A stretch of 64,000 bases of DNA from an uncultured Bacteroidota bacterium (GTDB lineage Bacteria; Bacteroidota; Bacteroidia; JABEUT01): positions 78,083 to 142,082 of the forward strand of contig CAVYDB010000007.1 of NCBI GenBank assembly GCA_963767125.1. The letters run 5' to 3'. Made by a program: the position numbers and the translations under genes. This document shows, one piece after another, positions 5,311 through 64,000 of this stretch; the stretch's first letter is position 1; the number at the start of each line of letters is the position of its first letter. The notes beneath the pieces are model-generated. The model was not told where the DNA came from. It did not search any database and saw nothing but the letters and a program-made list of their open reading frames with translations.

Positions 5311-6996
5311 TTATTGGATATTTTCGTGAACAAGCTTAGTAGAAAAGTTCACATTTTCATCTTTGATGTTCAGGATGTACACGCCATTAGCTACAGACAA
5401 ATTTACCGGCAATTTCATCATTCCCCCTTCCTGTGCCGTTACAGCATTCCATTGCTGAATCAGCCGCCCGGTAATATCAATAAGCCTTACTACGGCATTT
5501 TTTAAATTGGCACCGGGCTGAATAAAAATATTATTGGTAAATGGATTAGTAATAATAAAAGAATTATTTTCATCTGAAATTGTTTGATTGACCCCGGTAG
5601 TTACGCTGCATGAGTTGGGAATAGGGTTTAATTCAATAGGGCTGCCGGGAGTAAGGGTTTGCCCTGCCAGCCCGCTATAAGCAGGTAAATAAAACACACA
5701 CCGGAAGGTATTGTTATTAACCGGCACCGTATATTGTGCAAGAGGTCCTGAAGCATTTACAGGGTTTACATAGTCCCACACAGAATCTTGAGCGGTATCT
5801 ATCACTTCGAAAAAACGCCCTGCTGTAGCCTGGCAAATAAGGGTATTTCCATTAGGCAGCCTTTGTCCGCTACCCATAACCTGCGAATAGAAATCAGTTG
5901 GAACAGGCGTCTTGTAACTCCAATCTGCCGCAGCCGGACCATACGCTTGTCCTGAATCAAGGGTATAATTACCTGTGGAATCAATAGGAGGGTTAATAAT
6001 ATCTACCGAGGAGGCATTACCGCCCGGACGTCCCAGTCCATTATTGAATACCATTATTTTGCCGGCATCGCGGTAGCCTGCAGGTATCCATGAGGGGTTA
6101 TGCTGGGTAAACAACATTCTGTTTGCGGGTGCACCTCTGTCATAAGCCTGCGGATTGCCCCAGCGGTATAAAAAATCACCCCCTTTGCCATATCTTCCTC
6201 CGGAGTGTAAAGCTGCCTGGGCAGTAGTGGTGCTATGGTCAATAATATAAATTTCGGAAAGGCTGCGAAAGCTGAACAAGACTTGGTCCAATACCGAATC
6301 GTAGCTAATGCCGTTCATGTGCAGCCAGTCAGCCGATCCATTCCCAAATATTCCCGTATAGTTCAGGTTTAATAATTCAGGATGGTTTGCAACCACTCCA
6401 TAATTGGGCTTAGTGCTATCAAAGTCTTGCACTAAATGGTCCCAGGCACGCCATTGCCATACAATAATGCCAGAATCGGTTCCGATGGGTTGAATCTCCT
6501 CTAATTTTGCGCTCCAAATAGAAGTACCAAGTAAAAATGGATTTCTTCCCGATGCAACAGATGTTGCTGAACTAATGTATTCCCAAACTATAGCAATAAC
6601 ATTGCCATTAGGCATAGGGCATGCATCATGGTTTTGGGTTTCCGTATCCGAAGAAATAGTATAGGACCACAATAGGTTGCTATTCCAGTCGTATTTGGCA
6701 ATGAGCCCCCCGGTAGAGCCATTACCGGTGAATACAGTATTAGCTACCGCTTCGGTTCTTAATAAAGTACCATCAGGAAGCAAGTACACTGAAAGTCCCG
6801 GCGTTCTGTTGCTTGACCACTCATGTATTTTTCTGCCACATTTATCTATCAAATAAGTGGTGTCGGAATATTGAGGACCAAATAAAACATACCCGTCCAG
6901 TGAGCCGGGAGATTCATCAAATAACCCTACCGTTTGCTGAGATTGGGATGTTAAATAAAGCAAGCAAAAAAGCAGTGTTGTAAAAATAATCTTCAT
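5311..6996 (-). CDS. Arylsulfotransferase (ASST)-like secreted protein with T9SS C-terminal sorting domain
   Basis: Signal peptide MKIIFTTLLFCLLYLTSQSQ (the track start 7020 is TTG; ATG is at 6996). The N-terminal DGYVLFGP..SDTTYLIDKCGRKIHEW...YLLPDGTLLRT resembles the Arylsulfotran_2 family. The C-terminus ...RLIDITGRLIQQW...NGVYILNIKDENVNFSTKLV is CTD-like. Confidence 0.55.
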   Translation of the reverse strand: MKIIFTTLLFCLLYLTSQSQQTVGLFDESPGSLDGYVLFGPQYSDTTYLIDKCGRKIHEWSSNRTPGLSVYLLPDGTLLRTEAVANTVFTGNGSTGGLIAKYDWNSNLLWSYTISSDTETQNHDACPMPNGNVIAIVWEYISSATSVASGRNPFLLGTSIWSAKLEEIQPIGTDSGIIVWQWRAWDHLVQDFDSTKPNYGVVANHPELLNLNYTGIFGNGSADWLHMNGISYDSVLDQVLFSFRSLSEIYIIDHSTTTAQAALHSGGRYGKGGDFLYRWGNPQAYDRGAPANRMLFTQHNPSWIPAGYRDAGKIMVFNNGLGRPGGNASSVDIINPPIDSTGNYTLDSGQAYGPAAADWSYKTPVPTDFYSQVMGSGQRLPNGNTLICQATAGRFFEVIDTAQDSVWDYVNPVNASGPLAQYTVPVNNNTFRCVFYLPAYSGLAGQTLTPGSPIELNPIPNSCSVTTGVNQTISDENNSFIITNPFTNNIFIQPGANLKNAVVRLIDITGRLIQQWNAVTAQEGGMMKLPVNLSVANGVYILNIKDENVNFSTKLVHENIQ

Positions 6997-7255
6997 AATT
7001 TTTTTTATTTGTCGAGGCAAAAGTAATACTTAAAGGAAAATTAAATGTTATAGAATTTGGAAATATATTTATAAAATTCTATCCTGTTTTTACGTCTCCG
7101 GCTTTTGAGGGGCTATATTGTTGTTCAAAATTATTGAAACAGGGAGACCTGCTGCAAACTTTTTATTACTTGTAATAAGTCGCCAATTTTAATCCCCGGA
7201 ATTCCGATATTTGCATCAGGCAATTCATTCTATTCAACCCTATTTTTACCTCATT

Positions 7256-8003: not shown

Positions 8004-8567
8004 TTATTTTTTTATTTCGTACCATAGCTCCACCATGCCGCTTTTATAGGCTGTTATATCTTTCAGGTGAAGTGCCCCTTCTTGCTCAGGCTGGTTAAAA
8101 AGCCGCGTCCCCTCCCCTAATAATATTGGCATAACAGATACTCTTATTTCATCTGCCAGCTGCAGCCTGATGAAATGTTGGACAAGCATGGCTCCGCCTA
8201 CCACCCACACATTTTTGTATTTGGCTTTCAGGTGTTCATTCACCAACTTATTAAGGTCCCCCGAATAAATCGTAATGTTCCGCTTCTCAACAGGCAAGTT
8301 TCTGCTGCTTATTACAATAGTTGGTGTATCACCATAAGCCCAGCCATACAACTTTGAAAGCTCCAGTGCATGTTCATAGGTATGCGAGCCCATAACATAG
8401 CAATCTATCGTTTTAAGAAATTCACCGGTCTGTTGCTCCGTAATTTCCAGTCCTTTATCAAAGTGGTCATTGGTCTCGAACCAGGAAACGCTATTGTCTT
8501 TTTTGGCAATAATTCCGTCGAGGCTTGAAACAATATGAATGGTTATTTTAAAGGGTGATACCGTCAT
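8004..8567 (-). CDS. Dihydrofolate reductase family protein (RibD C-terminal domain type)
   Basis: 187 aa. ITIHIVSSLDGIIAKKD...WVVGGAMLVQHFIRLQLADEIRVSVMPILLGEGTRLF matches the RibD_C/DHFR-like pattern. Confidence 0.7.
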   Translation of the reverse strand: MTVSPFKITIHIVSSLDGIIAKKDNSVSWFETNDHFDKGLEITEQQTGEFLKTIDCYVMGSHTYEHALELSKLYGWAYGDTPTIVISSRNLPVEKRNITIYSGDLNKLVNEHLKAKYKNVWVVGGAMLVQHFIRLQLADEIRVSVMPILLGEGTRLFNQPEQEGALHLKDITAYKSGMVELWYEIKK

Positions 8568-8840: not shown

Positions 8841-10214
8841 TTACAAATAATACGTATCGCCTTTACGATCCAGGTAAAGAGGCGCGAACTTATTTCCCTG
8901 CGCACAATATTTCTCTACCGATTTCTTATCTGTTTCGCAAAGCAAGTAGTCCATGGCATCACTGGCATGACCATATTTCTCGCACACTATGCCGCTATCC
9001 ATTTTATATTTCTCCTTTTGCTTAGCTCCGTTCATATCTTGTTTAAGGTTCAGCAAATCCTGAATAAGATTTTCGCAGGTGGAAGAGATGCTGATTTTCA
9101 ATTCATCATTATTGCTAAATGCCTGGTTAATCCACTCTCCGCGTTTCTTCACCGAGGGTGCCGATTTAGCCACCCTGAATACAGGCTTAAACTCCTTCAG
9201 TTCCTCCCTGATGATTCCGAAATCATTATCCTGGCTGCGGCTGCGTGTGTCAAGGTGGTTGCCCGATGGATCACCATATATAAATATCCCCTCGCATAAA
9301 GAGGCGTCATGAATAACGTCTATACTAAACCAATTTTTAAACTTCCTGCAAATCTCGTAGGTGTTGGAGTCAGGAAAGGGCAGGCATATTTCATGAATAA
9401 AGCGCCGCTCCTCACCCACCGCCTGCATTATTTCAAGCGTGCAGTACGGATGCACATTAAAATCGAAACTCAGGTGCAGGGGGTAGTTGCGGTCGTAAGC
9501 ATATTCCCTCACGTGGCGTGTGGTGGAAAAGCTATGGTAAAATTCATGCCCCGTTTGCCCCTGCGACCAGATTCCAAGAGTCAGGTTCTCATACAAAGTC
9601 TTGTTTGTTTTTGCATTAATGAGCATCTGGTTTTTGTCGCTCTCATCCAAATAAGGGTTATCGTGGAAACTGGTAGTAAATATATAGCTGTCGGGCTCTG
9701 CCGCATCAAAAAAGCGGGCTTTAATCCAGTGGTGCTGGTTAGCAGGGTTAAAGGTGAGGCATACCTGCTTGTAGGTGTCCGATACCCCTCGCAGGCGGTA
9801 TTGCAGTTGGTTATAATCCACCTCATCCAGTTCGGTAGCTTCCTCCACCCATATATGCCTGATGCCATTGATGGATTTTAATTTATTCGGCTCATCAATA
9901 CCCCGGAAAATAATGTCGTTGCCATTGCGTACACACTTGATACGCAAGGGGCTTTGCGTAATTTTAAACAGGAGTTGCCATTCCATCGTATCTATTATTT
10001 CTATCAAATTAGCAAAAACAGATTCCCTGATATCTTCCTTCACCTTGCGCACACACAAGGCCCTGAAAGGGCTTTTTTCATGCAAGGTGCGATACAAGAT
10101 TTTAAATGCGAAGAATTTACTTTTGCCGCTTGCCGCAGTTCCGCAGCAGGCTATAGTACGCACCCGGCTTTCAAAAGCTTTTTCATAACCGGGCAGTATG
10201 TGGAAGGAGGACAT
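8841..10214 (-). CDS. terL: Phage terminase large subunit (PBSX/Terminase_3 type), intact, isolated
   Basis: 457 aa. Walker A is CCGTAASGKSKF and the Walker B/coupling motif is IRHIWVEEATELD. The C-terminal nuclease part has HLSFDFNVHP, IYGDPSG and HASDAMDY. No other phage ORF is adjacent. Confidence 0.85.
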   Translation of the reverse strand: MSSFHILPGYEKAFESRVRTIACCGTAASGKSKFFAFKILYRTLHEKSPFRALCVRKVKEDIRESVFANLIEIIDTMEWQLLFKITQSPLRIKCVRNGNDIIFRGIDEPNKLKSINGIRHIWVEEATELDEVDYNQLQYRLRGVSDTYKQVCLTFNPANQHHWIKARFFDAAEPDSYIFTTSFHDNPYLDESDKNQMLINAKTNKTLYENLTLGIWSQGQTGHEFYHSFSTTRHVREYAYDRNYPLHLSFDFNVHPYCTLEIMQAVGEERRFIHEICLPFPDSNTYEICRKFKNWFSIDVIHDASLCEGIFIYGDPSGNHLDTRSRSQDNDFGIIREELKEFKPVFRVAKSAPSVKKRGEWINQAFSNNDELKISISSTCENLIQDLLNLKQDMNGAKQKEKYKMDSGIVCEKYGHASDAMDYLLCETDKKSVEKYCAQGNKFAPLYLDRKGDTYYL

Positions 10215-10452
10215 AATTTTATACTATCGTTATTGCGAGGCTTCGCGAAGCAATCTCATAAAGTATAGAAACCCGTATGGCACGATAGCTTTGTGAAGCC
10301 ATGCCAGGCCGGTAGTTTTTGGCGTTTTACTTTTCAACCTTTCAACACCCGGGGGATGATTTTCTTCCGGTAATTGTATCCTTTGCCAGCTTTCTTTCAA
10401 GTTGTTTCCCTGTTCTTTTTTGTGGCTACTCTTTACCTGATTTTTATCTACA

Positions 10453-10495
10453 CAAAAATATAGTTTGAAAAGCGGGTTTGGGGAAAGTCATTGAC
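10453..10495 (-). promoter_or_regulatory. Composite late-type promoter upstream of terL (palindrome + -7 box)
   Basis: On the minus strand: AAAGTCAATGACTTT-type palindrome (core 10487-10495), a 26-nt gap, then TATTTTTG (10453-10460, matching TAnnTTTG). The same architecture occurs at four prophage late-region sites. Confidence 0.55.
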
Positions 10496-10585
10496 TTTCC
10501 CTTATATCAAGAAACGAAGCCAAGCCCTGTATTATTCCAACTTATGGGGCATATATGCACTTACGAAAAAAAACCGATGCCTGAT

Positions 10586-10704: not shown

Positions 10705-12156
10705 TCAATATCCCTTACCCTGTGCAGTTATTTCAGCTTCAAAAGATTCAAACCGTTCTTTCAATTTTCTTACCTCACCCTGTTTTTCAGGTTCACTTAA
10801 AAAGGAATATTGTATGCTATTAAATACTATTCTTTTTATTTGCTTATAAGAAAACTTATACCGCGAAGCCAGTAAAACATATTCATGGGTAAGGCTGCTA
10901 CGGGAAACCCCGGCATCATCGGTACAAATAACAACAGGCACCCCGGCATCGTAATACAGATTTACAGGATGATTTTTCCCTTTAATACCTAAAATAAATT
11001 CATTGCTTGACAGATTTATTTCCACGGCTATGGAATCTGTTTTCATTTTTTTCAGCAATTCCAGTGAATTGGTTTCATACGGAATATCTACCCCATGCCC
11101 TATACGGTTGGCTTTGGCAATATATACCGCATCGTGAATGTGATACGCCAGATCTTCGGGTTTCACCATCCCTAGGCTTAGTTCCCCGGCATGCATAGCG
11201 GTTTTAACGGATGGAAATTTATTTTTTAAATACTTAAACATCTGCATGTGCAGCCAGTAATCTCTCATAGAGATGTAATTATTCTCGGGTGCAACAATAT
11301 TTACTCCCACTAACAGCGAAGACTTATCACGGTTCACAGCATCGAAACAGCTATACAACATAGAAAAAACCTTTGCGGGTGCAACTACCCTTACGGCATA
11401 CGCCTGGTAGCGCATAGTAAAACCAGAATCATCAATACCCGCATGGTAAGCATGAACACTGTCAATATAATTGGCTATTGATTTATCGTATCCGGAGGAA
11501 GATTTGATAGAATTCACCAGTAAATCAAATAATTGATAGAGGTGGGCGGTATCTTTTTTGGTTTGGTAATAAAGTAAGGAATCTTCCAGTCTTTCCCTGA
11601 AATCTATATACACATCGGGTATGCTTAACATGGTTTCTACATACTGGATATTCTGCTTTTCAGCTTCCAGCTTAATTTCTGCAAGTCCCGCGCGGTAAAG
11701 GGCTTTGCTGATATACCCGAAAAAAGAAAAGGTATTGAAAAAATGCTGGTCCGGCGGGTCCTCGATGTGAAAGTTATTGGAGAAATCTTCATCAGACCAT
11801 TGCTCCAATACAGCACGGTAGAGTATAGTATTCTCCATTAATGAGTCAATGGTGATGTGCGACTTTATGGTATCGGCCTGGCACAGTTTGAACGTCCTTG
11901 CATCTATATGAAAGTTTTTGCTTTTAGCCCAGTCAAGGTAGGTTTCGGCATACAAGGAGCCGGAATAGTGATGATGCAGGTCTCCACCCTTAGGCATCAT
12001 AGACATAAACAAAGTCAGCTTTGCATTGTCTCCTTCCTTTTTAATGGCGTTAAAATATTTCTCTGTACTATTTTCATTTCTACGGTGCCGGTTGCAAGAT
12101 GCGACAAACAGCGCGAGAGGCAGTAGATATAAAATGATGGTTGGTTTTATTCTCAT
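10705..12156 (-). CDS. Adenosine deaminase family protein, secreted lipoprotein
   Basis: Lipoprotein signal LLPLALFVASC. Metal-binding motifs are GGDLHHHYSGS, MHAGE and VVICTDDAGV, typical of adenosine/AMP deaminase-fold enzymes. Confidence 0.65.
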   Translation of the reverse strand: MRIKPTIILYLLPLALFVASCNRHRRNENSTEKYFNAIKKEGDNAKLTLFMSMMPKGGDLHHHYSGSLYAETYLDWAKSKNFHIDARTFKLCQADTIKSHITIDSLMENTILYRAVLEQWSDEDFSNNFHIEDPPDQHFFNTFSFFGYISKALYRAGLAEIKLEAEKQNIQYVETMLSIPDVYIDFRERLEDSLLYYQTKKDTAHLYQLFDLLVNSIKSSSGYDKSIANYIDSVHAYHAGIDDSGFTMRYQAYAVRVVAPAKVFSMLYSCFDAVNRDKSSLLVGVNIVAPENNYISMRDYWLHMQMFKYLKNKFPSVKTAMHAGELSLGMVKPEDLAYHIHDAVYIAKANRIGHGVDIPYETNSLELLKKMKTDSIAVEINLSSNEFILGIKGKNHPVNLYYDAGVPVVICTDDAGVSRSSLTHEYVLLASRYKFSYKQIKRIVFNSIQYSFLSEPEKQGEVRKLKERFESFEAEITAQGKGY

Positions 12157-14585: not shown

Positions 14586-15854
14586 ATGCGCAAAATACTT
14601 ACCTATAACATTCTATTTGCTCTCATTCTTTCAACAATAATTGTTAGGGCACAATTAGTAACCCGCATCGTTACATCGAGACAAGCCGACAGCAATGTGA
14701 TGCACGATAACGACACCAACATAGCCATGCTGAATGATTCGGTAACCCGCCTGAATAAGCTATATGTATTTCTGCCGGGTTCGGGCGCTACGCCCCTGGG
14801 ATATGCCGATATTTTGGAAACAGCAGCTAACCTGGGCTATCATTCATTGGGCTTGGGATATAATAATGATTCCACTGTAGCCAGCCTGTGCAGCGGCTTT
14901 GGACCCTGGTGCGAAGGAGCAGTACGGGCAGAAATATTTTACGGGAAAAATTATTCGGCGCAGGTGAATGTAGATACTTCGGAGAGCATACGCACCCGTT
15001 TGGTGGCTATGCTCAAGTACCTGCAGGCGCATCATCCCCTGGATAACTGGGGGCAATATCTCGATGCGAATGATAGTGTGATATGGTCGCAGGTGTGTAT
15101 ATCGGGGCATTCGCAGGGAGCCGCTACAGCATCTCTTATTGCCTATTGGTACCCCGTGTGGAGAGGGGTATTTTTTGCCACCGGGGGCGATGCAAATGAC
15201 AGTTCGCGTTCCGTATCACTATGGATGCAGGGGCATTCCGTCACTCCGCCAGGCAAAAAATATGCCTTCGACCACCGCTATGATGAGTTGTATTGGGGAA
15301 CTTTACCTACCACTCCCGTAATTTGGGATACGCTGGGCATCGGCAACTACCTTGACTTTGATACTCTTTCAGGAAATTATTATCATGCACATTCCTTTAC
15401 CAGTTACGATACGGTTGCAATTCCGCCAAGCCCCATCCGTTATCACAACTGTGTTGTAACCGACCATTTTACTCCCATTATTTCCGGCAATTTCCTTTAC
15501 CTGCCTTTATGGATATATATGCTTACCGACACATCTACTGTAACAGGCATACAAACTGTTATTGCAGATAAAATAAGTGTACTGGTTTATCCCAATCCAA
15601 GCGGGGGCGTGTTTAAGTTCCAAGTAGAAACGGACCGTCCGGATGAACCGTTCGGACGGGAAAAGGGAAAAGGAGAAAGTGGGGAAATAGAAATTTATAA
15701 TGTGCTTGGTGAAAAAGTATATTCTCAATTCAATATTCAAACACCAAGTTTCAACATTGATTTATCTGCTGAGCCCAATGGCATTTATTTTTATCGTGTG
15801 CTTGATAGTAGCGGGGCATTGGAAGTTGACGGGAAGATAGAGATTGAGAGGTAA
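14586..15854 (+). CDS. Secreted alpha/beta-hydrolase-like protein with T9SS C-terminal sorting domain
   Basis: Signal peptide ...STIIVRAQ and a GxSxG nucleophile elbow ISGHSQGAA. The C-terminus is VYPNPSGGVFKF...IEIYNVLGEKVY...NGIYFYRVLDSSG. Confidence 0.5.
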   Translation: MRKILTYNILFALILSTIIVRAQLVTRIVTSRQADSNVMHDNDTNIAMLNDSVTRLNKLYVFLPGSGATPLGYADILETAANLGYHSLGLGYNNDSTVASLCSGFGPWCEGAVRAEIFYGKNYSAQVNVDTSESIRTRLVAMLKYLQAHHPLDNWGQYLDANDSVIWSQVCISGHSQGAATASLIAYWYPVWRGVFFATGGDANDSSRSVSLWMQGHSVTPPGKKYAFDHRYDELYWGTLPTTPVIWDTLGIGNYLDFDTLSGNYYHAHSFTSYDTVAIPPSPIRYHNCVVTDHFTPIISGNFLYLPLWIYMLTDTSTVTGIQTVIADKISVLVYPNPSGGVFKFQVETDRPDEPFGREKGKGESGEIEIYNVLGEKVYSQFNIQTPSFNIDLSAEPNGIYFYRVLDSSGALEVDGKIEIER

Positions 15855-24960: not shown

Positions 24961-24979
24961 CTTTTTTCACATAGATTGT

Positions 24980-25153: not shown

Positions 25154-25154
25154 G

Positions 25155-36723: not shown

Positions 36724-36889
36724 AAAACTTTAATTTGACGGTAAAGATACAATTATTTCTAAGGCATCACTTTCCTGTTTTTGCTAGCCTGTTCTTTACT
36801 ATCCCCCAAGGGGGAGAGCATAACTTTATCTTTCTATTATTATTTTTGCAATTCCGTGTGATTATATTCAGGTTGATTTTTATTTCTGT

Positions 36890-45993: not shown

Positions 45994-46037
45994 CAAAATT
46001 AAAGTATGGAATATTACCTTTCTGAAAAGTCATTGAC
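45994..46037 (-). promoter_or_regulatory. Composite late promoter
   Basis: Core GTCATTGAC at 46029-46037, a 27-nt gap, then TAATTTTG (minus strand, 45994-46001). It lies 45 nt upstream of ATG 45948. Confidence 0.55.
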
Positions 46038-48542: not shown

Positions 48543-48586
48543 CAAAGAAGGTATAGAAAATAGTGTTTAGATAAAAAGTCAATGAC
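48543..48586 (-). promoter_or_regulatory. Composite late promoter, degenerate -7 box
   Basis: Core GTCAATGAC at 48578-48586, a 27-nt gap, then CTTCTTTG (minus strand, 48543-48550). The TTTG is kept but the TA is lost. Confidence 0.4.
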
Positions 48587-53082: not shown

Positions 53083-53126
53083 CAAAAATAGATGCCGGGA
53101 AGGTGCTTTTAAAAAAAGTCAATGAC
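53083..53126 (-). promoter_or_regulatory. Composite late promoter
   Basis: Core GTCAATGAC at 53118-53126, a 27-nt gap, then TATTTTTG (minus strand, 53083-53090). Confidence 0.55.
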
Positions 53127-53922: not shown

Positions 53923-55203
53923 TTATTGCAAGTCTGTGCTAATCCGTGAATCTGAAACAGCGGAGGTTAAAATTGCCAGTAGCTCATCCTGAATATCAGT
54001 AGGAGCATCTACAGCATGTGTATGGTAACTATCATTGGTATTTACATTTACAGAGATATTACTGCTACTGCCTCCTCCCCGGGAACTGCGTGGCTGGGAA
54101 ATATTCCCCGTTCCCGGTATTTCAAAAGATGTACCCGGAGAGTGAGGCTTAACTCCATTCTTTGTTTTCGCAGTTTTGGGTTTCAAATAATGATGATGTA
54201 TCTGCCCAATGCTGCCGCTATGGACGGGTTTTCTACTTAAAGGTGTGTATACCGAATTTTTTAGTGATTGGTAATTCGGCTCTCCCTGGTTAAGCTGCTC
54301 TGCCAATCTACGTATGGCTGAATACTGCATGCCTTGCTTCAAATTAGCCCCCGCAAATTGAGGAACAAAAGGAGGGGGAGTATATGTTGCATTAATAGGA
54401 GGAGCAGTGCGGTTATTTCCTTTAATGTACCAACTATACTTGTCAGACTGACCCGTTTGAAGTTCTTGTTGCATACGAATGATATAGCTCCGTTCATCAA
54501 AAAATTCATTTACGGTATTTATATCCTTCTTTTCCCTTTGCTCTTGCTTTTGAGTAAGTGTATTCGTTGACATAGAAAGGGCGCCAACTTCACTTATGTA
54601 AGGATTTATCTTAGACTGCAAATCTGCTAGTTTTTCTTTAGTTAATTCAATATCCCTAACTAAAATTCCTTCCATAAGGGTATCGTGTAAATAAGTAGCA
54701 TACCTGGGATGATTTACAGGGTCATAGGAATACAAACCCGAATCTAATGCGGACAAAGAGGCACTATCTTGCCTTAATAAAGGTCGTAAATGTATATACT
54801 GCTTATCCGTTTCAATTAAATTTACTCCAGCTTCTTCACCCTCTCTTTTATTATCAAATATCCGGTTGATTTGAGTACCCGGTATTTTTATTCCCCAATA
54901 GTTATTTTGTTTAACAGACTTTTTATATTGAATAGAATCTCCATAGCCGGATTCATTTGCTGATAAAGTAAGCATCAAAGCAGAACCCATTACACTATAT
55001 CCTTTACGCCGTGCGTAAGCATATATTTCATACCCCACGTCATTAAAGTATGATTCATGGTTCTGTGTAATCGGGTATTTTCGATTACTGTTAAACCCCC
55101 ACCAATTAGTCAGGTCCACACTATCTTTTGTGGGGGCAGGGTATATACGTTTAGCCGTCTTTTTTTCTTTGGGTTTCCCCATACTTCTCTTTTTACCACT
55201 CAT
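53923..55203 (-). CDS. Tail-associated peptidoglycan hydrolase (glucosaminidase-like domain); tape-measure candidate
   Basis: MGSALMLTLSANESGYGDSIQYKKSVKQNNYWGIK resembles the FlgJ/glucosaminidase motif (..ESG.G.S......NN.FGIK). A helical middle and a Ser/Gly-rich C-terminus follow. It lies downstream of the chaperone pair. Confidence 0.45.
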   Translation of the reverse strand: MSGKKRSMGKPKEKKTAKRIYPAPTKDSVDLTNWWGFNSNRKYPITQNHESYFNDVGYEIYAYARRKGYSVMGSALMLTLSANESGYGDSIQYKKSVKQNNYWGIKIPGTQINRIFDNKREGEEAGVNLIETDKQYIHLRPLLRQDSASLSALDSGLYSYDPVNHPRYATYLHDTLMEGILVRDIELTKEKLADLQSKINPYISEVGALSMSTNTLTQKQEQREKKDINTVNEFFDERSYIIRMQQELQTGQSDKYSWYIKGNNRTAPPINATYTPPPFVPQFAGANLKQGMQYSAIRRLAEQLNQGEPNYQSLKNSVYTPLSRKPVHSGSIGQIHHHYLKPKTAKTKNGVKPHSPGTSFEIPGTGNISQPRSSRGGGSSSNISVNVNTNDSYHTHAVDAPTDIQDELLAILTSAVSDSRISTDLQ

Positions 55204-55284
55204 TTTATATTCCGATAAGAAACGTGCAAAGTAAATATACCCATTAAAAGAGCGTTTTCTTAATAGGTCATTAACTTATCTGTT

Positions 55285-56055
55285 TCACCTGTTAAGTTTG
55301 CTATTCTCCGTATATTTATCCCGTTCCCAGCTTATATGGTGCAAAACTATATTGTAAAATTTCATAGCGCCTTTATAGAATTCTATGCCATCTGCATTAA
55401 CAAGTTCTTTATAGGATGAAGTATCTAAATCGGTTCTCACAAAATGCTTGTATTCTATCCTATACCTGCTTATTTTATATGGTGTCCAAACGGTGATTCC
55501 ATTACTATTATCGTACATTGACCGCATTCCATGCCCAATAATGATATTATTTTTCAAATCAACATAAATATAGTACGAACCTTCATAAATAGGATTAGTT
55601 CCATTCCCTTTCGCGAATTTCAAAGATTTATTTGTTCTATTAAGCAAAAACAATATCGTATTACCTCTCCAATTGCAAATAGGAATTATCATTATTGAAT
55701 CATTCAGAAGACAATTTTCTGGTTTCTTTTCACCCGGCACCAGAATTGGAGCAATATTATGGTATGAATAATATTGCGTATCCCAACCTATGCCTTCATG
55801 TTCAGCATTGAAAGTATCGTACAGTTGATTTAGCGAACACTTTATCATTGTTTGGTTATACAACACCACTTTAATGGTATCCTTTTTTATTATGGTATCG
55901 AAAACATCAAAGATCGGATAAGATTTTTGGGGTGCTTCCTTGTGTACCGCATATTTAACTGCTTCTTTCTTTTGCAAGCCCTGCGCTGTATCCTTTTTTA
56001 CTGCACAGTGGCACCCGACAAGAATAACAAAAGAGAAATAAAAAAACCTTTTCAT
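55285..56055 (-). CDS. Lipoprotein inserted between tail chaperone and tape-measure candidate
   Basis: Signal FYFSFVILVGC. 256 aa, spot G+C 30-33 percent. No motif. Confidence 0.55.
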   Translation of the reverse strand: MKRFFYFSFVILVGCHCAVKKDTAQGLQKKEAVKYAVHKEAPQKSYPIFDVFDTIIKKDTIKVVLYNQTMIKCSLNQLYDTFNAEHEGIGWDTQYYSYHNIAPILVPGEKKPENCLLNDSIMIIPICNWRGNTILFLLNRTNKSLKFAKGNGTNPIYEGSYYIYVDLKNNIIIGHGMRSMYDNSNGITVWTPYKISRYRIEYKHFVRTDLDTSSYKELVNADGIEFYKGAMKFYNIVLHHISWERDKYTENSKLNR

Positions 56056-56179
56056 GACTTCCGCTAAGGGGGAGATAAATTCAAGTTAAAGATATATTAT
56101 TTCCGGATACATCTCTCCGTCTATTAAAAATAAATATTAACTTTATTGAGACGGTTAACATATTGCCCTACCGGGTATA

Positions 56180-56392
56180 TTATTCCTCCATGATGCCCAG
56201 TTTTTTAAGGCAGTGGCACAGTTCTATCCATAATTCACCTATACGTTCCTGGGTGAGATTACCGGTATCTATATGAAAAAAGAACCGTATCCAGGCAGCC
56301 CATTTTAAGGTCTCGCTTGCTTCGAAATCTCCGGAATACTTATCTAATTTTTTTTTAACAAATCGCGGGCTACCATAATAAGCCCCAGACAA
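56180..56392 (-). CDS. -1 frame extension of the tail assembly chaperone
   Basis: The ORF is open in the -1 frame across the A9 run. After slippage it would read ...LLKKKLDKYSGDFEASETLKW... Confidence 0.55.
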   Translation of the reverse strand: MSGAYYGSPRFVKKKLDKYSGDFEASETLKWAAWIRFFFHIDTGNLTQERIGELWIELCHCLKKLGIMEE

Positions 56393-56739
56393 TAGTCAAT
56401 AGCGCCCAAATAGTACGCGTCGTTGTCATTATCACGGTCAAACACCCTTGCGTCTGACGCTTCTTTTATCACCGTAGCATCAAACAGCATAGCGCTTGCT
56501 TTCGATGGGCTTTGGTAAGACAAATCCATACACTGCATTTTAGTAAATGTAGTGGCGGCAGAAAAATAAACCACACAGGGTTTATCTTCCTTACCCATGC
56601 TTAAAATTGCGGCATTTACTTTGCCTTTATACCTCGCTTCCAGTTCCAGCCTTTTTGCTTCGGCATCAGCGCGCAATTGTTCACTATTTCTTTTTTCGTT
56701 TTCCGGTTTTCTCATACCTTTTAAAATTTCAAGCATCAA
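56344..56739 (-). CDS. Tail assembly chaperone (zero-frame product)
   Basis: 131 aa, directly after the tube-sized gene. It ends in ...LLKKN* within an A9 run. Confidence 0.6.
   Translation of the reverse strand: MMLEILKGMRKPENEKRNSEQLRADAEAKRLELEARYKGKVNAAILSMGKEDKPCVVYFSAATTFTKMQCMDLSYQSPSKASAMLFDATVIKEASDARVFDRDNDNDAYYLGAIDYCLGLIMVARDLLKKN
56348..56356 (-). other. Slippery sequence A AAA AAA (A9) for programmed -1 frameshifting
   Basis: The minus strand reads TTA AAA AAA AAT TAG. The heptamer fits X XXY YYZ, two codons before the zero-frame stop. Confidence 0.6.
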
Positions 56740-56806
56740 TCAGGTGGATGGGAACAGCTCAGGAGATACATGAACTATAAGTTCCCGCGTATCTCTTATA
56801 TCAGCC

Positions 56807-57232
56807 TTAGCTGTTCCAGTTAATATTTCCTATCAGCAGGGGAATTTTCATCACCAGTTTTTTATCATTTGTTTTTGCTGAAAAAGGGTTTTTCATAAAT
56901 ACGCAGCTTTGCAGGGTATCTATGGTTAATGCCTGGCTGGTGTTACCATATATCACTTTAATGGTGAATGCCGGTATAAGCTGTATTTTCCCTAATGGAG
57001 CCAGCGCAATAATATTGTTTATTTCCTCTTTGAAAAGCTCGATGGAGCCGGTGTATTTAAACTGACCATAGCCTTGCCCTATGGGAAAGTTGCCGGCGCC
57101 ATAGTTGTTTTCCATGGCTTGCTCTTCATCATATTCTATAGATGTGATGCCTACCAGTGGTGTAGTGCCGAAAAGCATTACCTGCACGTCGCCCCAGCTG
57201 TAATTAATGCCGTTTATAAGTGGATTTGCCAT
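56807..57232 (-). CDS. Tail tube protein candidate
   Basis: 141 aa, lying between the sheath-sized gene and the chaperone pair. Positional call. Confidence 0.5.
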   Translation of the reverse strand: MANPLINGINYSWGDVQVMLFGTTPLVGITSIEYDEEQAMENNYGAGNFPIGQGYGQFKYTGSIELFKEEINNIIALAPLGKIQLIPAFTIKVIYGNTSQALTIDTLQSCVFMKNPFSAKTNDKKLVMKIPLLIGNINWNS

Positions 57233-57288
57233 ATTTTTAAATTAATTTGATGATTTGGTAATTTGAAGATTTGATAATACTGTGAACT

Positions 57289-58869
57289 TTATAAGCTGAC
57301 TGCAAATTGAAGGTTAATGACTATTTCCCTTGCTACGCCCACCGGTTGCAGCAATACAGTTACTACCAGCGTACTTGTGCTTAACACATTTTGCGCCGGA
57401 TTAATATTCACTTTAAAGCCACTTAATTCCGGCCGGCCGGTATTGGGGTTTGTTTGAGCCATATTACTCAGCGCCTGTTCACCAATTCCTTCAAAAAAAG
57501 CAACGGTGGAATTAGTCAGTGTCCCATCGGCATTTACCGTTAATGGGGCAGCGAGTTGCTCAATATAGGCTGCATATAACTGGCGTGAAGCTTTATCGAA
57601 TGTGCGGTTATTTTCAATATAGGCGTAATCGGAGGTATAGGCTGTGCAGCAATGCGAATCATTTACATACGTTCCGTTCGGACTGTCGTTTATAAACTGC
57701 CGCCCGAAGATATACCGGAATGCATCCACCGAATTAATAGTGCCCGCGCTTAATGTACTTAATAATTCAGGTGTAACTCCAGCCCCACTAATGGTAGTGG
57801 CAAAAGCAGGAACGGCATTTTCTATTCCATCGGGGCTTAAGGTATAAGTGGCTACCCAGGCTATATCGTCAGAAACCTGCGATGCCGAAACCAGGCCCAA
57901 CACATCGCCAAGCTGGGTAACTGAAAAACCTTGTGCATAAAATATTCCTGCTCCTGTAGCCGCCCCATCCTGACCTATTACCAGGCTCACATGCTCTGAA
58001 CCTAATATGGAGAGGTCACTTAAACCGGAGGCGCCGTTGGTAAGGGTTGCAAAATCAGTCCCCACAATGGCGCTTAACGGGGCATTATTGGCTATCAATG
58101 TTTTTATTTGTGCTTCAATAGCGGTTACATAATCCAACGTTTGCTCTAACGTGGAAAAAGGGGTAGGTATATATACGCCTAATTGCCTTATGGCGCCGCC
58201 TGCAAAAGCCTGCATGCTCCCTACTTCGGGGAAAGCATAAGCATCTCCCGGCGATTCATCGAATATTCCAACATATAAGGTGGAATTGGGACTTTGGGTA
58301 AAGTACCGGTTTATATGATACCAGGTATTTAAAACCGAAGCTATACCCCCGGAAAAATTATGCGTCATGGTTCCTGCAATCGTTCCGGTGATATTCACGC
58401 TTAAAGGGGTATTCGGCGAGTTTGGGTATAGCCCAAGCCCGGGGCGTGCCTTAATAGTAACTGCCCCTGCCGTATTACTTGCAGTGTAGCCTGTTAAATT
58501 CGTATTGATGGCTTTAACGATACTATCTGCCAGAAGAGTGACAGAAGTATCGCCCGCTGAACGGGTATAGGTACACAATGTTATTAAATTGGTGTACTCC
58601 TGCACCTGGAATACCATAGTATCACCCGCTGCTCCGTATCCGGTTATTGTATATTCGGCAGTAGCTGCATCTTCATCTGAATAGTTTCCGGCAGATACCG
58701 GTATTATTCCTGCATTGATAGCATCCTGTATCCCGCCGAATTTGGCAATTCCCCCGGAAGGAAACAGAGTGGGCGCCGTGCCATAAAATACCAACCCGGA
58801 AATAAAATCCTGCCCTGATGGTTGCCGTCCAAGCCCGCCCTGTCCCCTGTTTATTATTACGTTATTCAT
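57289..58869 (-). CDS. Tail sheath protein candidate
   Basis: 526 aa, first large gene after the head genes, followed by the tube-sized gene and the frameshifting chaperone. Positional call, no named motif. Confidence 0.45.
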   Translation of the reverse strand: MNNVIINRGQGGLGRQPSGQDFISGLVFYGTAPTLFPSGGIAKFGGIQDAINAGIIPVSAGNYSDEDAATAEYTITGYGAAGDTMVFQVQEYTNLITLCTYTRSAGDTSVTLLADSIVKAINTNLTGYTASNTAGAVTIKARPGLGLYPNSPNTPLSVNITGTIAGTMTHNFSGGIASVLNTWYHINRYFTQSPNSTLYVGIFDESPGDAYAFPEVGSMQAFAGGAIRQLGVYIPTPFSTLEQTLDYVTAIEAQIKTLIANNAPLSAIVGTDFATLTNGASGLSDLSILGSEHVSLVIGQDGAATGAGIFYAQGFSVTQLGDVLGLVSASQVSDDIAWVATYTLSPDGIENAVPAFATTISGAGVTPELLSTLSAGTINSVDAFRYIFGRQFINDSPNGTYVNDSHCCTAYTSDYAYIENNRTFDKASRQLYAAYIEQLAAPLTVNADGTLTNSTVAFFEGIGEQALSNMAQTNPNTGRPELSGFKVNINPAQNVLSTSTLVVTVLLQPVGVAREIVINLQFAVSL

Positions 58870-58943
58870 GTGTGTTTAAAGTTTAATTATTAGTTATTAT
58901 AAATATGTTTTACTGTTTTATTTTCTTATTTCATAGGTCACCG

Positions 58944-59414
58944 CTACTTCACCAGCTTTTGCAAGGCTTCCGTTATTGCTTTCACGGGGCTGTCTTCGTC
59001 ATTATCTGTTTCAGCTTTTTGTTTTGCCTTCATTGCCCTTTGTTCTGCTTTGTATGCCGAAATAATTTCATCTTTGTTTTCCAGTACCTCGTCCCTGGAG
59101 TATTCCTTTATCACTGCTTTACGAGCAATATATTTTCCGGCTAACAAAACTTTCTTCTGTCTTTTACCCTGCTTTATCAGCGTAGCCTCGGTTGCTATTT
59201 TAGGGTCGAGGTCAACATATTCATGCAGGTCGCCCCCGGGGGAGAAGAAATACCCATCGGAAGTGATATACACCCGGCTGACATGCCCGCATAGCGCATG
59301 CTCAAGCGCATTGATAAGATTATACGCCTGCAGGCTGGTCAGTTCGGGAATTGGGTTTCCCTGAAAGAGGCTTTTTTCAACTTTAACAATAGGGTTAAGG
59401 GTTTTTACCGGCAT
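58944..59414 (-). CDS. Hypothetical head-tail joining region protein
   Basis: 156 aa with a Lys/Glu-rich C-terminal tail. Confidence 0.4.
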   Translation of the reverse strand: MPVKTLNPIVKVEKSLFQGNPIPELTSLQAYNLINALEHALCGHVSRVYITSDGYFFSPGGDLHEYVDLDPKIATEATLIKQGKRQKKVLLAGKYIARKAVIKEYSRDEVLENKDEIISAYKAEQRAMKAKQKAETDNDEDSPVKAITEALQKLVK

Positions 59415-59509
59415 TTTATTAGAGATTGATTATTATTGATTAGCTATAAGATGTTAGATAAAAGATAGTTGAAAACCACCTGTTAATTCCACCGTGTATT
59501 ACTTCCTTT

Positions 59510-59995
59510 TTAGTTTCCTGCCATGTACGAGGTTTCCCTCCAGGCATTTCCATCGAACATGAAAGTGATGTGATATGACTTTTTGGCTGCCACCGGGATA
59601 TTCAAATTAAAACCTTTAAACCCTTTGGTGAAGATGACGTGCTTTCTGAGAAAAAGCGTATCGGCGCCTACACACTGGAATTCGATTTTATCGCAAACAT
59701 TGCTGCGGGTAGTATTCGCATATAAGTACAAGGTGTCTTTTATGCTATCGCCCGGCTGTATAAAAGTTTCAAATCCGTGGGGAGTAAATTTTGCCGTATC
59801 GTGGTACCCGGTATCTTTTGGGGTATAATAATAATAAGTAAGCACCCTGCCTGTATTGTCGTCATTGGGTACTATACCGAAACGGGGAGATACGTTTTGG
59901 GCGAAACAGCTGAACGCAATTAAGTTGAAAGCAAATATAACTCCGCCGGATTTCAGAATTTTTGAAATACTATTTCTTATTTGATTTTTCTTCAT
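59510..59995 (-). CDS. Secreted protein inserted between capsid and tail genes
   Basis: Signal GVIFAFNLIAFSCFAQ. 161 aa, no motif. Confidence 0.5.
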   Translation of the reverse strand: MKKNQIRNSISKILKSGGVIFAFNLIAFSCFAQNVSPRFGIVPNDDNTGRVLTYYYYTPKDTGYHDTAKFTPHGFETFIQPGDSIKDTLYLYANTTRSNVCDKIEFQCVGADTLFLRKHVIFTKGFKGFNLNIPVAAKKSYHITFMFDGNAWRETSYMAGN

Positions 59996-60106
59996 GATTT
60001 TATTTTTTTAACTTTTTTAATATATACTTTTTATCTTTTCGGGGTATTCCCCCGGAAGACTGTTTCCAATACTCCGGGGTATTTACCCTAATCAACCCTA
60101 TGAAAA

Positions 60107-61123
60107 TTAATGTGTAATATTTGTGAATAGTACCATTTGGTCGCCCCAGCCGTGGTTTACATCCACTTTAAAAATCCCTTTTACATACCACAGGTCGCTG
60201 GGATTGCTGGTTTTTTTCATTTCAAGTTGAACATCATCGGTACTGTTTACACCAATCCAAAGGTTGCTTTGAATATCCGGTCGCCCGACGGTAAGGAACA
60301 TGGTTCCCGGGTTCAATCCTGCCAGCGGAACAATATCGTGACCTTTATACCGGTTGATACCGCTTTGGGTGGAGTCAATATTCTTATGCGCATCCTGACG
60401 TAAGGCCTCTTCGTAAATATCCTGGTCGGAATAACTCATAAAATATCTCAATCCTAATGGACCGTAACGATAGCATAAAGCTTTGCTGAGGGTATTATTC
60501 ATAAGGGTTTGGCGCATGGAAGTAAGCCTGTCCCTTATATTGGTGTAATCGTAGGATGTCCAGGAAAGGGTTTGTACCGTGGAATCACTTAATGCCTTGT
60601 AAAGGAACCCGTCGAACATATAGTCGGCATTGGTCTGTAACGTATTGTCGGTATAGCCTTTGCCGGTGGGAGCCACATTAGCTCCTGCGGGGTCAAACAT
60701 CAATCGTGAATTCCAGAATGCTGTTTCAAAATATTCGTTCAGGCGCTTCATGTATTGCAGCATAATGAAGTTCTCTGCTGTTGGGGGCAGCGTGCGGTCA
60801 ATGAGCCTGTCTTGTTCAAATTGTTCAGCGAAAAAATGCTGTTCAAAATCGGCAGGATTAAACTCCTGGTACATTTCAAACTTTTGGGGATCGAGTACAC
60901 GCCCATCCACCGTTATGTTCCCTGAGCTTACGGGAGTTGCAGCATAATGCTGTATTAGCCCGCTTACTTCCACACGCGGTATGGTTACTTGCTTGCGGAT
61001 TCCATCTACCACGTTGGCACAACCTTTTACTATTGTGTCCACGTCAACAACAGCGCGGGTTATCATATAGTCGAGTGCGGGACCCGACCAGCTTGTGTCT
61101 GTAATATTCAGTACGTCTGCCAT
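60107..61123 (-). CDS. Major capsid protein
   Basis: 338 aa, immediately downstream of the protease-scaffold gene. Size and position are typical; no motif checked. Confidence 0.65.
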   Translation of the reverse strand: MADVLNITDTSWSGPALDYMITRAVVDVDTIVKGCANVVDGIRKQVTIPRVEVSGLIQHYAATPVSSGNITVDGRVLDPQKFEMYQEFNPADFEQHFFAEQFEQDRLIDRTLPPTAENFIMLQYMKRLNEYFETAFWNSRLMFDPAGANVAPTGKGYTDNTLQTNADYMFDGFLYKALSDSTVQTLSWTSYDYTNIRDRLTSMRQTLMNNTLSKALCYRYGPLGLRYFMSYSDQDIYEEALRQDAHKNIDSTQSGINRYKGHDIVPLAGLNPGTMFLTVGRPDIQSNLWIGVNSTDDVQLEMKKTSNPSDLWYVKGIFKVDVNHGWGDQMVLFTNITH

Positions 61124-61161
61124 GTTAATTTATTTAAGATTTAAAATTTATGAACTACGAT

Positions 61162-62298
61162 TTATTGTTTCTGTTTTTCACTGATTGTCCTGCGCTTTGC
61201 TGCCATAAATGAGCCAATATTTACAGGCTGTTCCATCCCTCCGGCATTTTCAATATGAATTTTTGCAGCAGCCCGGTAAGAGGATAACCCATCAATGAGA
61301 GAGCGGGTGCGGTCTTTATCGGCTACATATAAATCGACCCAGGCATTTTTAGCTTCAGCTTTTAGCTTGCCCGTTTTTACTGCCTCATTCACCACTGTTT
61401 CAGCCTCTGCTTTTAGTACAAGGGCTTCGGCTTCCTTCCTTTTATTCTTCAAAGTTTCAGCTTCCAGTTTGGTTACTTTACACTCCTCTTCCATCGCTGC
61501 ATACTTCTCTCTCAGCTCAGTCAATTCTTTTTCTTTAGCTACAATGGTCTCTGAAAGTTTATCCAATTCTTCATTAGATGGGATGCTGTTCTTAATAGCT
61601 TTCACAGCTTTGATGAATTCCTTTTCCGAAGCATTTTCCGGAAGTTCGAGCAGGTTTGCAAGTCCTTTCATATATTCTGTTTGTTTTGATTCAATACTAT
61701 TTACCACTTCCAGCAGTTTTTTATGGGCTGCCTGTGGAGTAGTTTTATTGGTGATTTTTGGCAAATTGGCATCAGTGGTAATGTCCACAATCTCATCTAC
61801 CAACTTATTTTCCAACGATTCTTCAGCGTTCAGCCAGGAGGTTTTGTCCATTAAATCACTCATCTCCGATTCTGAAATTCCTGTACGCGGGCAAAGCATT
61901 TTTATAAGAGTTTCTTTCAGGGTATCTAACTCTTTGCTATCGCCTCCGCTGGGGTTGTGAAGCATTACCTGTCCCCAGGGAACCATTTTGCGGGTTCTGC
62001 CTGCCTGGAGAATTACACCAGCCATACTTACTGCTATACCCACACATACCGTATCTACCGGAATGGTGCAGGATTTGATAGCAGAATAAATAGTCATGCC
62101 ATCTATAATAGAACCGCCGAGGCTATTGATGTGAACCTCTATCCCTTTTTTAGCTTGCTTTTCAAGACACGTTAAATATTCCGCAAACTCTTTCCCGCTA
62201 ATCCCGCTAATGGTACCATCTTCATTACGCTCCTCCCCTATTACATCGTAAAGTTGCAATACCGGGATTTCGTCGTTTTCGTTTTTACAGAATATCAT
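61162..62298 (-). CDS. Prohead protease (ClpP/S14-like) fused to scaffold-like coiled coil
   Basis: The N-terminus is IEVHINSLGGSIIDGMTIYSAI...VCVGIAVSMAGVILQAG...VMLHNPSGG, the ClpP-fold Ser/His context. The C-terminal 170 aa are Glu/Lys/Ala-rich coiled coil. Confidence 0.8.
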   Translation of the reverse strand: MIFCKNENDEIPVLQLYDVIGEERNEDGTISGISGKEFAEYLTCLEKQAKKGIEVHINSLGGSIIDGMTIYSAIKSCTIPVDTVCVGIAVSMAGVILQAGRTRKMVPWGQVMLHNPSGGDSKELDTLKETLIKMLCPRTGISESEMSDLMDKTSWLNAEESLENKLVDEIVDITTDANLPKITNKTTPQAAHKKLLEVVNSIESKQTEYMKGLANLLELPENASEKEFIKAVKAIKNSIPSNEELDKLSETIVAKEKELTELREKYAAMEEECKVTKLEAETLKNKRKEAEALVLKAEAETVVNEAVKTGKLKAEAKNAWVDLYVADKDRTRSLIDGLSSYRAAAKIHIENAGGMEQPVNIGSFMAAKRRTISEKQKQ

Positions 62299-62337: not shown

Positions 62338-62392
62338 CAAAAATAAATGGTGAAAAAGGGTGTTCATAAAAAGTCAATGAGAAGTCATTGAC
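62338..62392 (-). promoter_or_regulatory. Composite late promoter with duplicated palindrome
   Basis: Cores GTCAATGAG (62373-62381) and GTCATTGAC (62384-62392). A 27-nt gap separates the first core from TATTTTTG (minus strand, 62338-62345). It lies 39 nt upstream of ATG 62298. Confidence 0.6.
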
Positions 62393-62491
62393 CGGTCCCG
62401 AAAAAAACATCTTATGATTTACCTTTGCATATATCTGAAAAGGGCTTCTGCAAAAGGGTTAAAGTCAATATAAGATATTCAAAATCTACTT

Positions 62492-63731: not shown

Positions 63732-64000
63732 TTAACTTTTCACTAAAATTTCCTGCCCGTTAACATTTATCGTGAGAGCGCCATCAGCATTCATTGAAGC
63801 GGAAAAAGAGGTTAGCGTTTTGCCATCCAGTTTTAGCTGCTGGTTAATAGTGTTGCTAAGCTGCTGCCCTGTCCCCGGTGAATTAAGATAATTGGGTGCG
63901 GCGCATCCCACTAATGGAAACTGTTTCCACCAGCCCGGGTAGCTTAAAATTATATCCTCTGCTTCTTGCAATGTTGTGTCATCTACTGAAAAATCTCCGT
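63732..64000 (-). CDS. Hypothetical protein, C-terminal part (gene continues beyond window)
   Basis: The track starts it at TTG 63971, but the frame stays open to base 64000 (..GDFSVDDTTLQEAEDIIL..). Confidence 0.4.
   Translation of the reverse strand, partial: GDFSVDDTTLQEAEDIILSYPGWWKQFPLVGCAAPNYLNSPGTGQQLSNTINQQLKLDGKTLTSFSASMNADGALTINVNGQEILVKS

Follow-up and report, generated by a model that had tools for sequence, protein, structure and literature searches.

The 64,000-nucleotide stretch examined here (the window), from contig CAVYDB010000007.1 of an uncultured Bacteroidota bacterium, contains an intact gene for the large subunit of a phage terminase, terL, which stands alone among host genes and is preceded by the same ~44-bp promoter as a set of contractile-phage late genes located 35-58 kb away. 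We give about an even chance to the reading that terL encodes a working large terminase and belongs, as a detached transcription unit, to a fragmented particle system of Mu/hankyphage-like origin, a candidate for a gene transfer agent (GTA)-like system. When the locus was first annotated three readings were put forward, namely a dispersed system under one regulon, a rearrangement that split a prophage, and a sister prophage of which terL alone survives; the first is favoured here while the other two are argued against, because the separation of the terminase from the portal-bearing unit (c4-portal) recurs in four independent relatives of the cluster, because promoter-bearing lone terL genes recur, one clade of them at a conserved host locus, and because lone terL and the structural genes appear to be under strong purifying selection.

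The integrity of terL, which the first-pass annotation had described as encoding a 457-aa protein with Walker A, Walker B and nuclease motifs, was borne out by profile searches and by alignment with 14 homologues. Residues 22-214 match Pfam Terminase_3 (PF04466; E 6e-46), with Terminase_6N also matching, the score with NCBIfam TIGR01547 (PBSX-family terminase large subunit) is 148.4 bits where 105 is the cut-off, and two terL families, PHROG 3717 and PHROG 2, match as well, the latter across residues 12-420. The start position is conserved across the alignment, and the Walker A (G25, K31, S32) and Walker B (E125, E128) residues are invariant, as are the acidic residues of the nuclease (D251 in FDFN, D315 in YGDP and D419 in GHxSDA) in all 15 sequences. 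The nearest solved structure is Sf6 gp2 (4IDH; E 5e-15), which aligns with the ATPase domain at residues 8-214, while no Pfam model matches the C-terminal nuclease half; the nearest deposited phage records are Flavobacterium myophages, at 32-35% identity. Three homologues (P0010, P0018 and P0055) are 587-758 aa in length and carry Hint/intein-type domains (PF07591, PF14890), and are therefore intein-containing terminases.

The neighbours of terL are a gene for a RibD_C protein (8004-8567) and one for an adenosine deaminase (10705-12156), corresponding to the DHFR-family gene and adenosine deaminase originally named there, and from position 738 to 25 kb the sequence is ordinary Bacteroidota chromosome, terL excepted. 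The claim that no phage gene lies within ~10 kb of terL thus holds and may be widened, as no second phage gene was found within 16 kb and the closest structural phage gene is more than 30 kb away; since only host genes occupy the interval from 0.7 to 25 kb, terL is truly alone. The usual context of such a gene, with terS before it and a portal gene after it, is absent: tblastn detected no terS-like remnant in the 238-nt terL leader, and five terS-like family profiles gave no match among all six-frame open reading frames (ORFs) of the window and the adjoining contig L002 (68 kb). The leader has no unusual RNA fold (z-score -0.3), Rfam has no match in it or in ten promoter-bearing loci, and scans for terminators and sigma-70 promoters around terL remained at chance level. 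Apart from the promoters, a window-wide search revealed no repeat linking the flanks of terL with the late cluster, and PADLOC had no match for terL, the small upstream ORFs or an S24-type regulator described below, the adenosine deaminase matching only the generic deaminase domain of CARF_ADA. The only syntenic relative is L149 (related loci are designated by L numbers); L149 and L115 derive from a close relative in which FeoB is 89% identical, but synteny stops directly past FeoB, and their RibD_C protein is a paralogue (25%), such that no empty terL site can be read there.

What ties terL to the phage genes is the promoter. In the terL copy a GTCAATGAC palindrome is followed by a T-tract, 26 nt and then TATTTTTG, which we take to be a version of the general Bacteroidetes -7 box TAnnTTTG; the GTCAATGAC core, 26 nt upstream of this box, lies in a 21-bp perfect palindrome, GGGAAAGTCAATGACTTTCCC (10481-10501), that is unique in the window. 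Family-wide, the element consists of a GTCAWTGAC palindrome, a T-tract, 26-27 nt and a TAnnTTTG -7 box, ~44 bp in all, an alternative form of the pattern being GTCAWTGACTTT-N22-23-TAnnTTTG. The pattern TCAWTGAC-N26/27-TAnnTTTG has five matches in the window as compared to 0.04 expected, and these occur only at terL and in the late cluster, in agreement with the original observation that terL is preceded by the palindrome and promoter of the late units; TATTTTTG by itself is uninformative, with nine copies where 10.6 are expected. A sixth copy of the promoter precedes the next late unit (that of c7) just past the window, at 6956-6914 of L002, and equals the terL promoter at 36/44 positions with one gap.

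The minus-strand genes between 42 and 64 kb represent a contractile-tailed phage set comprising a protease-scaffold, major capsid protein (MCP), sheath, tube, DUF6046-like proteins, hub, fibre and endolysin, and contig L002 extends the readable sequence to ~67.9 kb. The region from 62.4 to 63.7 kb, earlier described as carrying plus-strand genes, does so, but minus-strand late genes continue beyond it. The head genes are of Mu type (Portal_Mu, Mu-like protease, gp36-like), although no Mor/C homologue was recognised, and the nearest deposited phage record to the MCP is Bacteroides hankyphage, at 26-28% identity. The endolysin has GH108 and PG_binding_3 domains, the 44671 protein resembles the N-terminus of a sister-phage fibre, and two genes (55285-56055, 256 aa; 53923-55203, 426 aa) occupy the place of the tape measure, a position filled in each of the compact sister phages L217 and L218 by a protein of 529-544 aa. 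To these two phages the structural block is 41-70% identical. A PMT_2 glycosyltransferase gene (48819-50456, plus strand) is embedded within the late cluster, and the c76 gene (103 aa; window 63732-63971, L002 2896-3210) is found after c21 in this family and in the baseplate module of the sister phages. Small genes of no assigned family accompany a LexA/CI-like S24 regulator at 26.8-30.4 kb, which probably belongs to the particle gene system because its homologues (68% identity) adjoin late units in the relatives L108, L180 and L204.

This layout was compared with that of other genomes. In canonical relatives, which come from Chitinophagaceae genomes and IMG/VR (L018, L019, L022, L035, L092), the genes are contiguous in the order terS-terL-c4(gp36-like)-portal(Mu type)-MuF-c5-c7-c8-c11-c21-protease-MCP; the proteins of the window share 28-38% identity with their counterparts in these phages, the figure for the lone terL being 36-39%. 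The exact promoter pattern is absent in L018, L019, L022 and L035, and consensus scoring found none in L019, L035 and L092. The sister phages L217 and L218 (MCP 61-62%) likewise are compact and without the GTCAWTGAC motif, one showing the early genes ParB_N, PAPS reductase and SNF2 and the other an adjacent portal and MuF. As canonical and sister phages are compact or contiguous and lack the motif, the scattered layout with one promoter per unit is, by this comparison, the derived state of one lineage. A close relative, L139 (MCP 91%, tube 97%, protease 83-84%), has the same derived layout, and in close relatives of the cluster the promoter stands ahead of each late unit: among the matches listed, ~30 promoter sites precede homologues of the late genes of the window or terS-like/terL genes, those behind the promoter being c7 (68-74%), DUF6046-like genes, homologues of 56344 and 46683, the protease (77%), c4 and c16-terL.

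In these relatives terminase and portal are likewise apart. A promoter-c4-portal unit is followed in L101 and L185 by a divergent promoter-m6-m74-aldo/keto reductase unit, L101 continuing with promoter-c7-c8-c11, and on the upstream side of promoter-c4-portal in L101, L185, L167 and L190 lie host-like genes of the type IX secretion system (T9SS) or TonB_C kind, never terS-terL. A gene like L019_8010 upstream of c4 was considered as a phage gene and rejected, its similarity being limited to the TonB_C domain. The order of late units varies (L200, L123, L169 and L178 as compared with the window; L108, L180 and L204), and in L137 and L186 a c4-portal beside c7 is lacking altogether. Between the portal, or the place expected for it, and c7 an aldo/keto reductase is conserved in L101, L139, L185 and L186. 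By analogy with these relatives, c4-portal would be expected just past the window and terS-terL would not; a portal profile search listed Chitinophaga-type portals at 47% identity or more, a result which says nothing on absence, and strict single-protein scans of viral sequences returned one distant locus for c8 and none for terL. The alignment of c8 contains no segment of sufficient conservation for scanning metagenomes.

A contiguous temperate prophage of Mu/hankyphage type is not what is present here, as host genes separate terL from the rest and no integration module was found in the sequence read to 67.9 kb. One large integrated prophage from ~9 to 74 kb, with its attachment site between terL and c4, is an alternative that we regard as improbable: terL would be its left end and c4-portal its right end, and circularisation would put terL directly upstream of c4-portal. 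The minus-strand orientation of terL and all late units, the canonical terL-c4-portal order restored by joining the ends, and the inclusion of the LexA/CI-like regulator with its small unassigned genes all fit such an element, but its interior would hold 16 kb of chromosomal genes, a tRNA, a fragment of an insertion sequence (IS) and a 10-kb block of five T9SS cargo genes at 31-41 kb, which separates the S24 regulator from the late genes. Neither an integrase nor a transposase was found in the window except for the IS1595 fragment, the gene beside tRNA-Cys (25285-26679) that was initially called an integrase being one for a T9SS cargo protein. Furthermore, many MCP homologues (~50% identity) are located on phage-sized contigs of ~30-40 kb, the genomes of the sister phages are likewise compact, the units are shuffled in relatives, some without their neighbours (L137, L186), and in the xerD-linked clade of lone terLs the xerD side is kept whereas the genes upstream of terS-like/terL differ wholly between genomes.

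Lone terminases of this kind are found in other genomes, terL homologues being alone in chromosomal surroundings in L003, L004, L008, L012 and L017. The exact promoter precedes a small ORF or terL in L004, L008, L014, L015, L017, L098, L162 and L211, and degenerate variants of it precede the terL unit in L011, L012, L013 and L016. A small ORF ahead of terL, c16, has weak terS PHROG matches, and in L004, L008, L014, L016 and L017 the c16-terL pair occupies one host locus, with GT2 present in 5/5 and xerD, GWxTD and c44 also present where the contig reaches. Identities at this locus are 70-75% for terL, 54-60% for c16, 81-85% for GT2, 87-92% for XerD and 58-63% for GWxTD, the divergence of terL thus lying between those of GWxTD and GT2. 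Vertical inheritance would produce such a pattern, although repeated site-specific integration is also possible; the recombinase beside these terLs was examined as a potential element integrase and rejected, since it is a XerD equivalog (score 340.8, cut-off 329.6).

That a neighbour-joining tree resolves lone terLs into at least three clades, among which phage-borne terLs are interspersed, and that many genomes contain lone terS-like + terL pairs and many lone terS-like/DUF5681-like ORFs behind the promoter, would also suit an independent hijacker, that is a satellite-like module or decoy in which a terminase encoded in the chromosome has come under the late promoter used by helper phages of this family, so that upon induction of, or infection by, the helper other DNA is packaged into helper capsids or helper packaging is disturbed. 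We consider this unlikely, albeit the least so of the alternatives. The integrase, repressor and replication genes that are linked in PICI/SaPI/P4-like satellites were not found within 10 kb of terL in the window, L003, L004, L008 or L012, the terL of the window is without a terS, and PADLOC was without a match. In 2.9 million viral contigs the promoter was matched four times, each time in an unrelated phage, which was judged to be about the number expected by chance; this, together with its absence from the true phages examined, means that no free helper using the promoter is known.

The ratio of nonsynonymous to synonymous substitution rates (dN/dS) was 0.05-0.10 across pairs of lone terLs, including 0.085 between the terL of the window and that of L010 (72% identical) and 0.10 (dS 0.88) for the sister pair L011 and L012, which is also lone, and 0.01-0.14 for structural genes compared between the window and L139, the ratios being rough as dS is saturated in most pairs. 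Both lone terL and the structural genes would accordingly seem to be under strong purifying selection. These values, with the full-length ORF, its complete set of motifs and the absence of pseudogene debris flanking terL, make it very improbable that terL is a remnant, whether all that survives of a sister prophage that has decayed or a fragment relocated by a recent rearrangement, and is intact by chance; moreover, the same split in relatives means that it was not a private event of this genome. What speaks for decay or rearrangement is the Mu-like ancestry of the system, Mu-type transposition being prone to rearrangements, and the truncated IS1595-family transposase gene at 23308-23628, homologues of which adjoin promoter-bearing late units in L097 and L142; an element of this family is a possible agent of late-unit shuffling. 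Because relatives share the split, lone terLs carry the promoter and dN/dS is low, the separation of terL from the portal unit is, as read from these genomes, old, conserved and selected, and neither a recent rearrangement nor a remnant.

In this family each late unit starts with the ~44-bp promoter, the units being a terminase unit, c4-portal, c7-c8-c11-c21-c76, protease-MCP-sheath-tube, baseplate units and a fibre-lysis unit; they have been shuffled, with host-like genes between them, and the terminase never stands beside the portal unit. We propose that a shared regulator turns these promoters on and that TerL is then produced at the same time as procapsids and tails. Between the end of the palindrome and the -7 box there are 26-27 nt, a spacing that would suit an activator, and the S24 LexA/CI-like protein is a candidate for the upstream switch; further candidates for binding GTCAWTGAC are m6, a conserved protein of 116-122 aa, and the 75-aa protein encoded at 62492-62719. 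TerL would then dock on the portal and fill heads by ATP-driven translocation, its nuclease cutting by a headful mechanism. Co-expression and the nature of the packaged DNA are predicted here from sequence. From terL to the last late unit seen the genes span at least 59 kb, with ordinary chromosomal genes between, and the span would be ~65 kb with c4-portal in the place that it has in relatives. Self-packaging of the whole gene set would thus seem to be impossible: with genes dispersed over at least 59 kb and no terS-like gene with terL, particles would probably be unable to carry the whole system, which would make it a GTA-like or other host-retained particle producer and not a self-propagating phage.

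Several findings weigh against the dispersed system proposed here. The terL promoter is 1 nt shorter than the other copies, and the terL leader is without the hairpin found in the leaders of other units. The window and L002 yielded no terS, no MuF, no c5 and no tape measure that BLAST would recognise, and portal and c4 are not among the genes of this genome read to ~67.9 kb. Vertical inheritance is indicated for the xerD-linked terL clade and not for that of the window, whose terL is ~40% identical to the promoter-bearing c16-terL clade of the relatives' samples; as the clade differs, and as one metagenome-assembled genome, AM_bin-3948 (L012, L014), holds lone terLs of both the window's clade (51% identity) and the xerD-linked clade (40%), the terL of the window may not be the one that serves this cluster. 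Lastly, the 44-bp promoter also precedes many non-phage genes in related metagenomes, and the original term prophage late promoter, which is correct in that the promoter is shared with the late units, is for this reason too narrow. When JGI metagenomes were searched for exact matches to the promoter pattern, at least 120 DNA stretches were retrieved; among the matches listed, ~100/123 sites share the extended consensus gTCAWTGACTTTTtagAAAacCACTTTTTCATgcacTATTTTTG, and at 39 of those ~100 sites a conserved non-coding leader is followed by unrelated genes. The promoter before such genes could reflect a host regulon joined by the particle genes, which would fit domestication, or could equally reflect other elements answering to the same factor.

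The leader at the 39 loci (L099-L208; for example L104 686-900, L148 955-1200 and L154 8827-8580) is ~150 nt in length, has short hairpins of the form CCCTGTTA(T)TAACAGGG and precedes host-like genes or DUF5681-like ORFs; it has no Rfam family and may be a new leader, a small RNA or a promoter-bearing repeat. Within the window, a site upstream of the ferritin gene (20606-21157), at 21223-21266 on the minus strand, agrees with the promoter consensus at 31/44 positions (GTTAATGACTTT...CATGGTATATTTTTA), which hints that this promoter type is not confined to phage-derived genes. Many late-unit leaders have long hairpins formed by CAGT(A/G)GT-type repeats directly after the promoter (L004 9545-9640, L116 890-985, L168 7050-7150, window 52965-53080), with a dG of -39 kcal/mol and z ~ -6 in L004 and L116 and a z of -2.2 in the 53-kb unit of the window; a string of similar repeats is located at 2845-2876, between feoA and feoB.

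Table 1. Coordinates of terL, its promoter and the other principal features of the window.
Feature	Coordinates	Strand	Remarks
Host genes	0.7-25 kb		DUF2254, FeoAB, T9SS arylsulfotransferase, DUF6855, S41 peptidase, T9SS lipase, PEMT, Fic, FAD monooxygenase, TetR, ferritin, DoxX, IS1595 fragment
terL	8841..10214	-	457 aa; intact PBSX/Terminase_3-type large terminase; ATPase and RNase H-like nuclease domains
terL leader (-7 box to ATG)	10215..10452	-	238 nt, no ORF
terL promoter	10453..10501	-	-7 box TATTTTTG 10453-10460; motif match 10494-10453
tRNA-Cys	25154-25225	-	
Helix-turn-helix and S24-peptidase (LexA/CI-like) regulator	26790-27422	-	Pfam match
Fibre-to-lysis unit	44671-45948, 43716-44600, 42879-43445, 41996-42526	-	endolysin 42879-43445
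Promoter of fibre-to-lysis unit	45994..46037	-	motif match 46036-45994
Baseplate unit	48004-48483, 47599-47994, 46683-47579, 46070-46624	-	
Variant promoter of baseplate unit	48543..48586	-	32/44 to consensus; repeat family D16
Baseplate hub	50501-51799	-	
Tandem DUF6046-like baseplate genes	52429-52971, 51874-52416	-	
Promoter of DUF6046-like/hub unit	53083..53126	-	motif match 53125-53083; followed by leader hairpin
Head-to-tail structural block	53923..62298	-	PHROG matches
Protease-scaffold	61162-62298	-	behind minus copy at 62338
MCP	60107-61123	-	behind minus copy at 62338
Sheath	57289-58869	-	behind minus copy at 62338
Tube	56807-57232	-	behind minus copy at 62338
Other genes of the block	59510-59995, 58944-59414, 56344-56739, 56180-56392, 55285-56055, 53923-55203	-	
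Divergent promoter pair	62338..62427	both	minus copy 62380-62338, plus copy 62385-62427
75-aa gene and ClpP-like gene	62492-63693	+	behind plus copy of divergent pair; 75-aa gene 62492-62719
Start of next late unit	63732..64000	-	runs past window; in L002 c76, c21, c11, c8, c7 to ~67.7 kb

Two further observations concern the surroundings of these features. Directly against the 3' end of the tRNA-Cys gene lie two identical tandem copies of an 87-nt unit (24979-25152). T9SS cargo genes (Por_Secre_tail with NHL, Kelch, SprB or beta-propeller domains), which in the window are located at 25285-26679, 31226-41023, 5311-7020 and 14586-15854, flank lone terL and c4-portal units in many genomes (L003, L004, L008, L012, L017, L101, L162, L167, L185), an association that could be due to chance in cargo-rich genomes or could be real.

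On a wider view, which we hold only tentatively, a soil, peat and freshwater lineage of Bacteroidota may keep a domesticated Mu/hankyphage-derived myovirus as scattered, promoter-tagged units with the terminase always detached and with one 44-bp promoter that also controls host genes, which might make it the phylum's first GTA-like system, and a contractile-tailed one; in our search of the literature no GTA or GTA-like system from Bacteroidota came up. The locus offers a concrete GTA-like candidate with a defined gene set, a cis-element and, in the lone terL, a target for a single-gene knockout, and as GTCAWTGAC-N26/27-TAnnTTTG marks every unit it may serve to locate the remaining members of the regulon. 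An isolated, intact chromosomal terminase need not be debris, given that lone terLs recur in at least three clades, share the promoter and appear to be under purifying selection, and this bears on how prophage-finding tools score lone terL genes as well as on phage domestication proceeding module by module, each module with its own promoter.

Satellites such as the SaPI/PICI type with terS (Staphylococcus aureus pathogenicity islands and phage-inducible chromosomal islands) and the capsid-forming PICIs express chromosomal packaging genes from a phage-type late signal and in this respect resemble the lone terL; they differ in that no integrase, replication or repressor module is near the lone terLs examined, and in that the lone gene is terL, not only terS. 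The protein itself is similar to the PBSX-family/Terminase_3 enzymes and Sf6 gp2 in sequence family and in the motifs of the ATPase fold, but unlike these has no terS or portal gene beside it. Judged by the MCP the nearest studied relative is the hankyphage of Bacteroides, yet at a very low identity; the hankyphage (p00, jmh*_hp) is a Mu-like transposable temperate phage with a CI-like repressor and a contiguous mobile genome of ~42 kb, and makes defective particles in the laboratory (PMC12135933). In contrast, neither a transposase nor a diversity-generating retroelement was seen in the cluster of the window. The late promoters of bacteriophage Mu, Plys, PI, PP and Pmom, are activated by protein C (PMC4461284), and the system described here is similar to Mu late transcription in its several late operons, its activator-type promoter with a dyad upstream and its Mu-type head genes, while it differs in that the motif is unrelated in sequence, the units are non-contiguous and the promoter also precedes non-phage genes.

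The closest parallel is with GTAs. In the RcGTA of Rhodobacter, terS-terL head the main cluster. As in RcGTA and FpGTA, the Bacteroidota system has its phage-derived head, tail and lysis genes (protease, MCP, sheath, tube, hub and endolysin among them) in the chromosome and distributed over several loci, with purifying selection acting on the structural genes; common control and the lack of self-packaging are further likenesses that we propose from the genes. The FpGTA of Faecalibacterium is encoded by two operons ~125 kb apart, and very few GTAs were known outside the Alphaproteobacteria at the time of its description in 2026 (PMC12946183). Unlike these GTAs, the system of the window is contractile-tailed with a Mu/hankyphage-like head, the part detached is the terminase and not accessory genes, and each late unit carries its own conserved 44-bp promoter.

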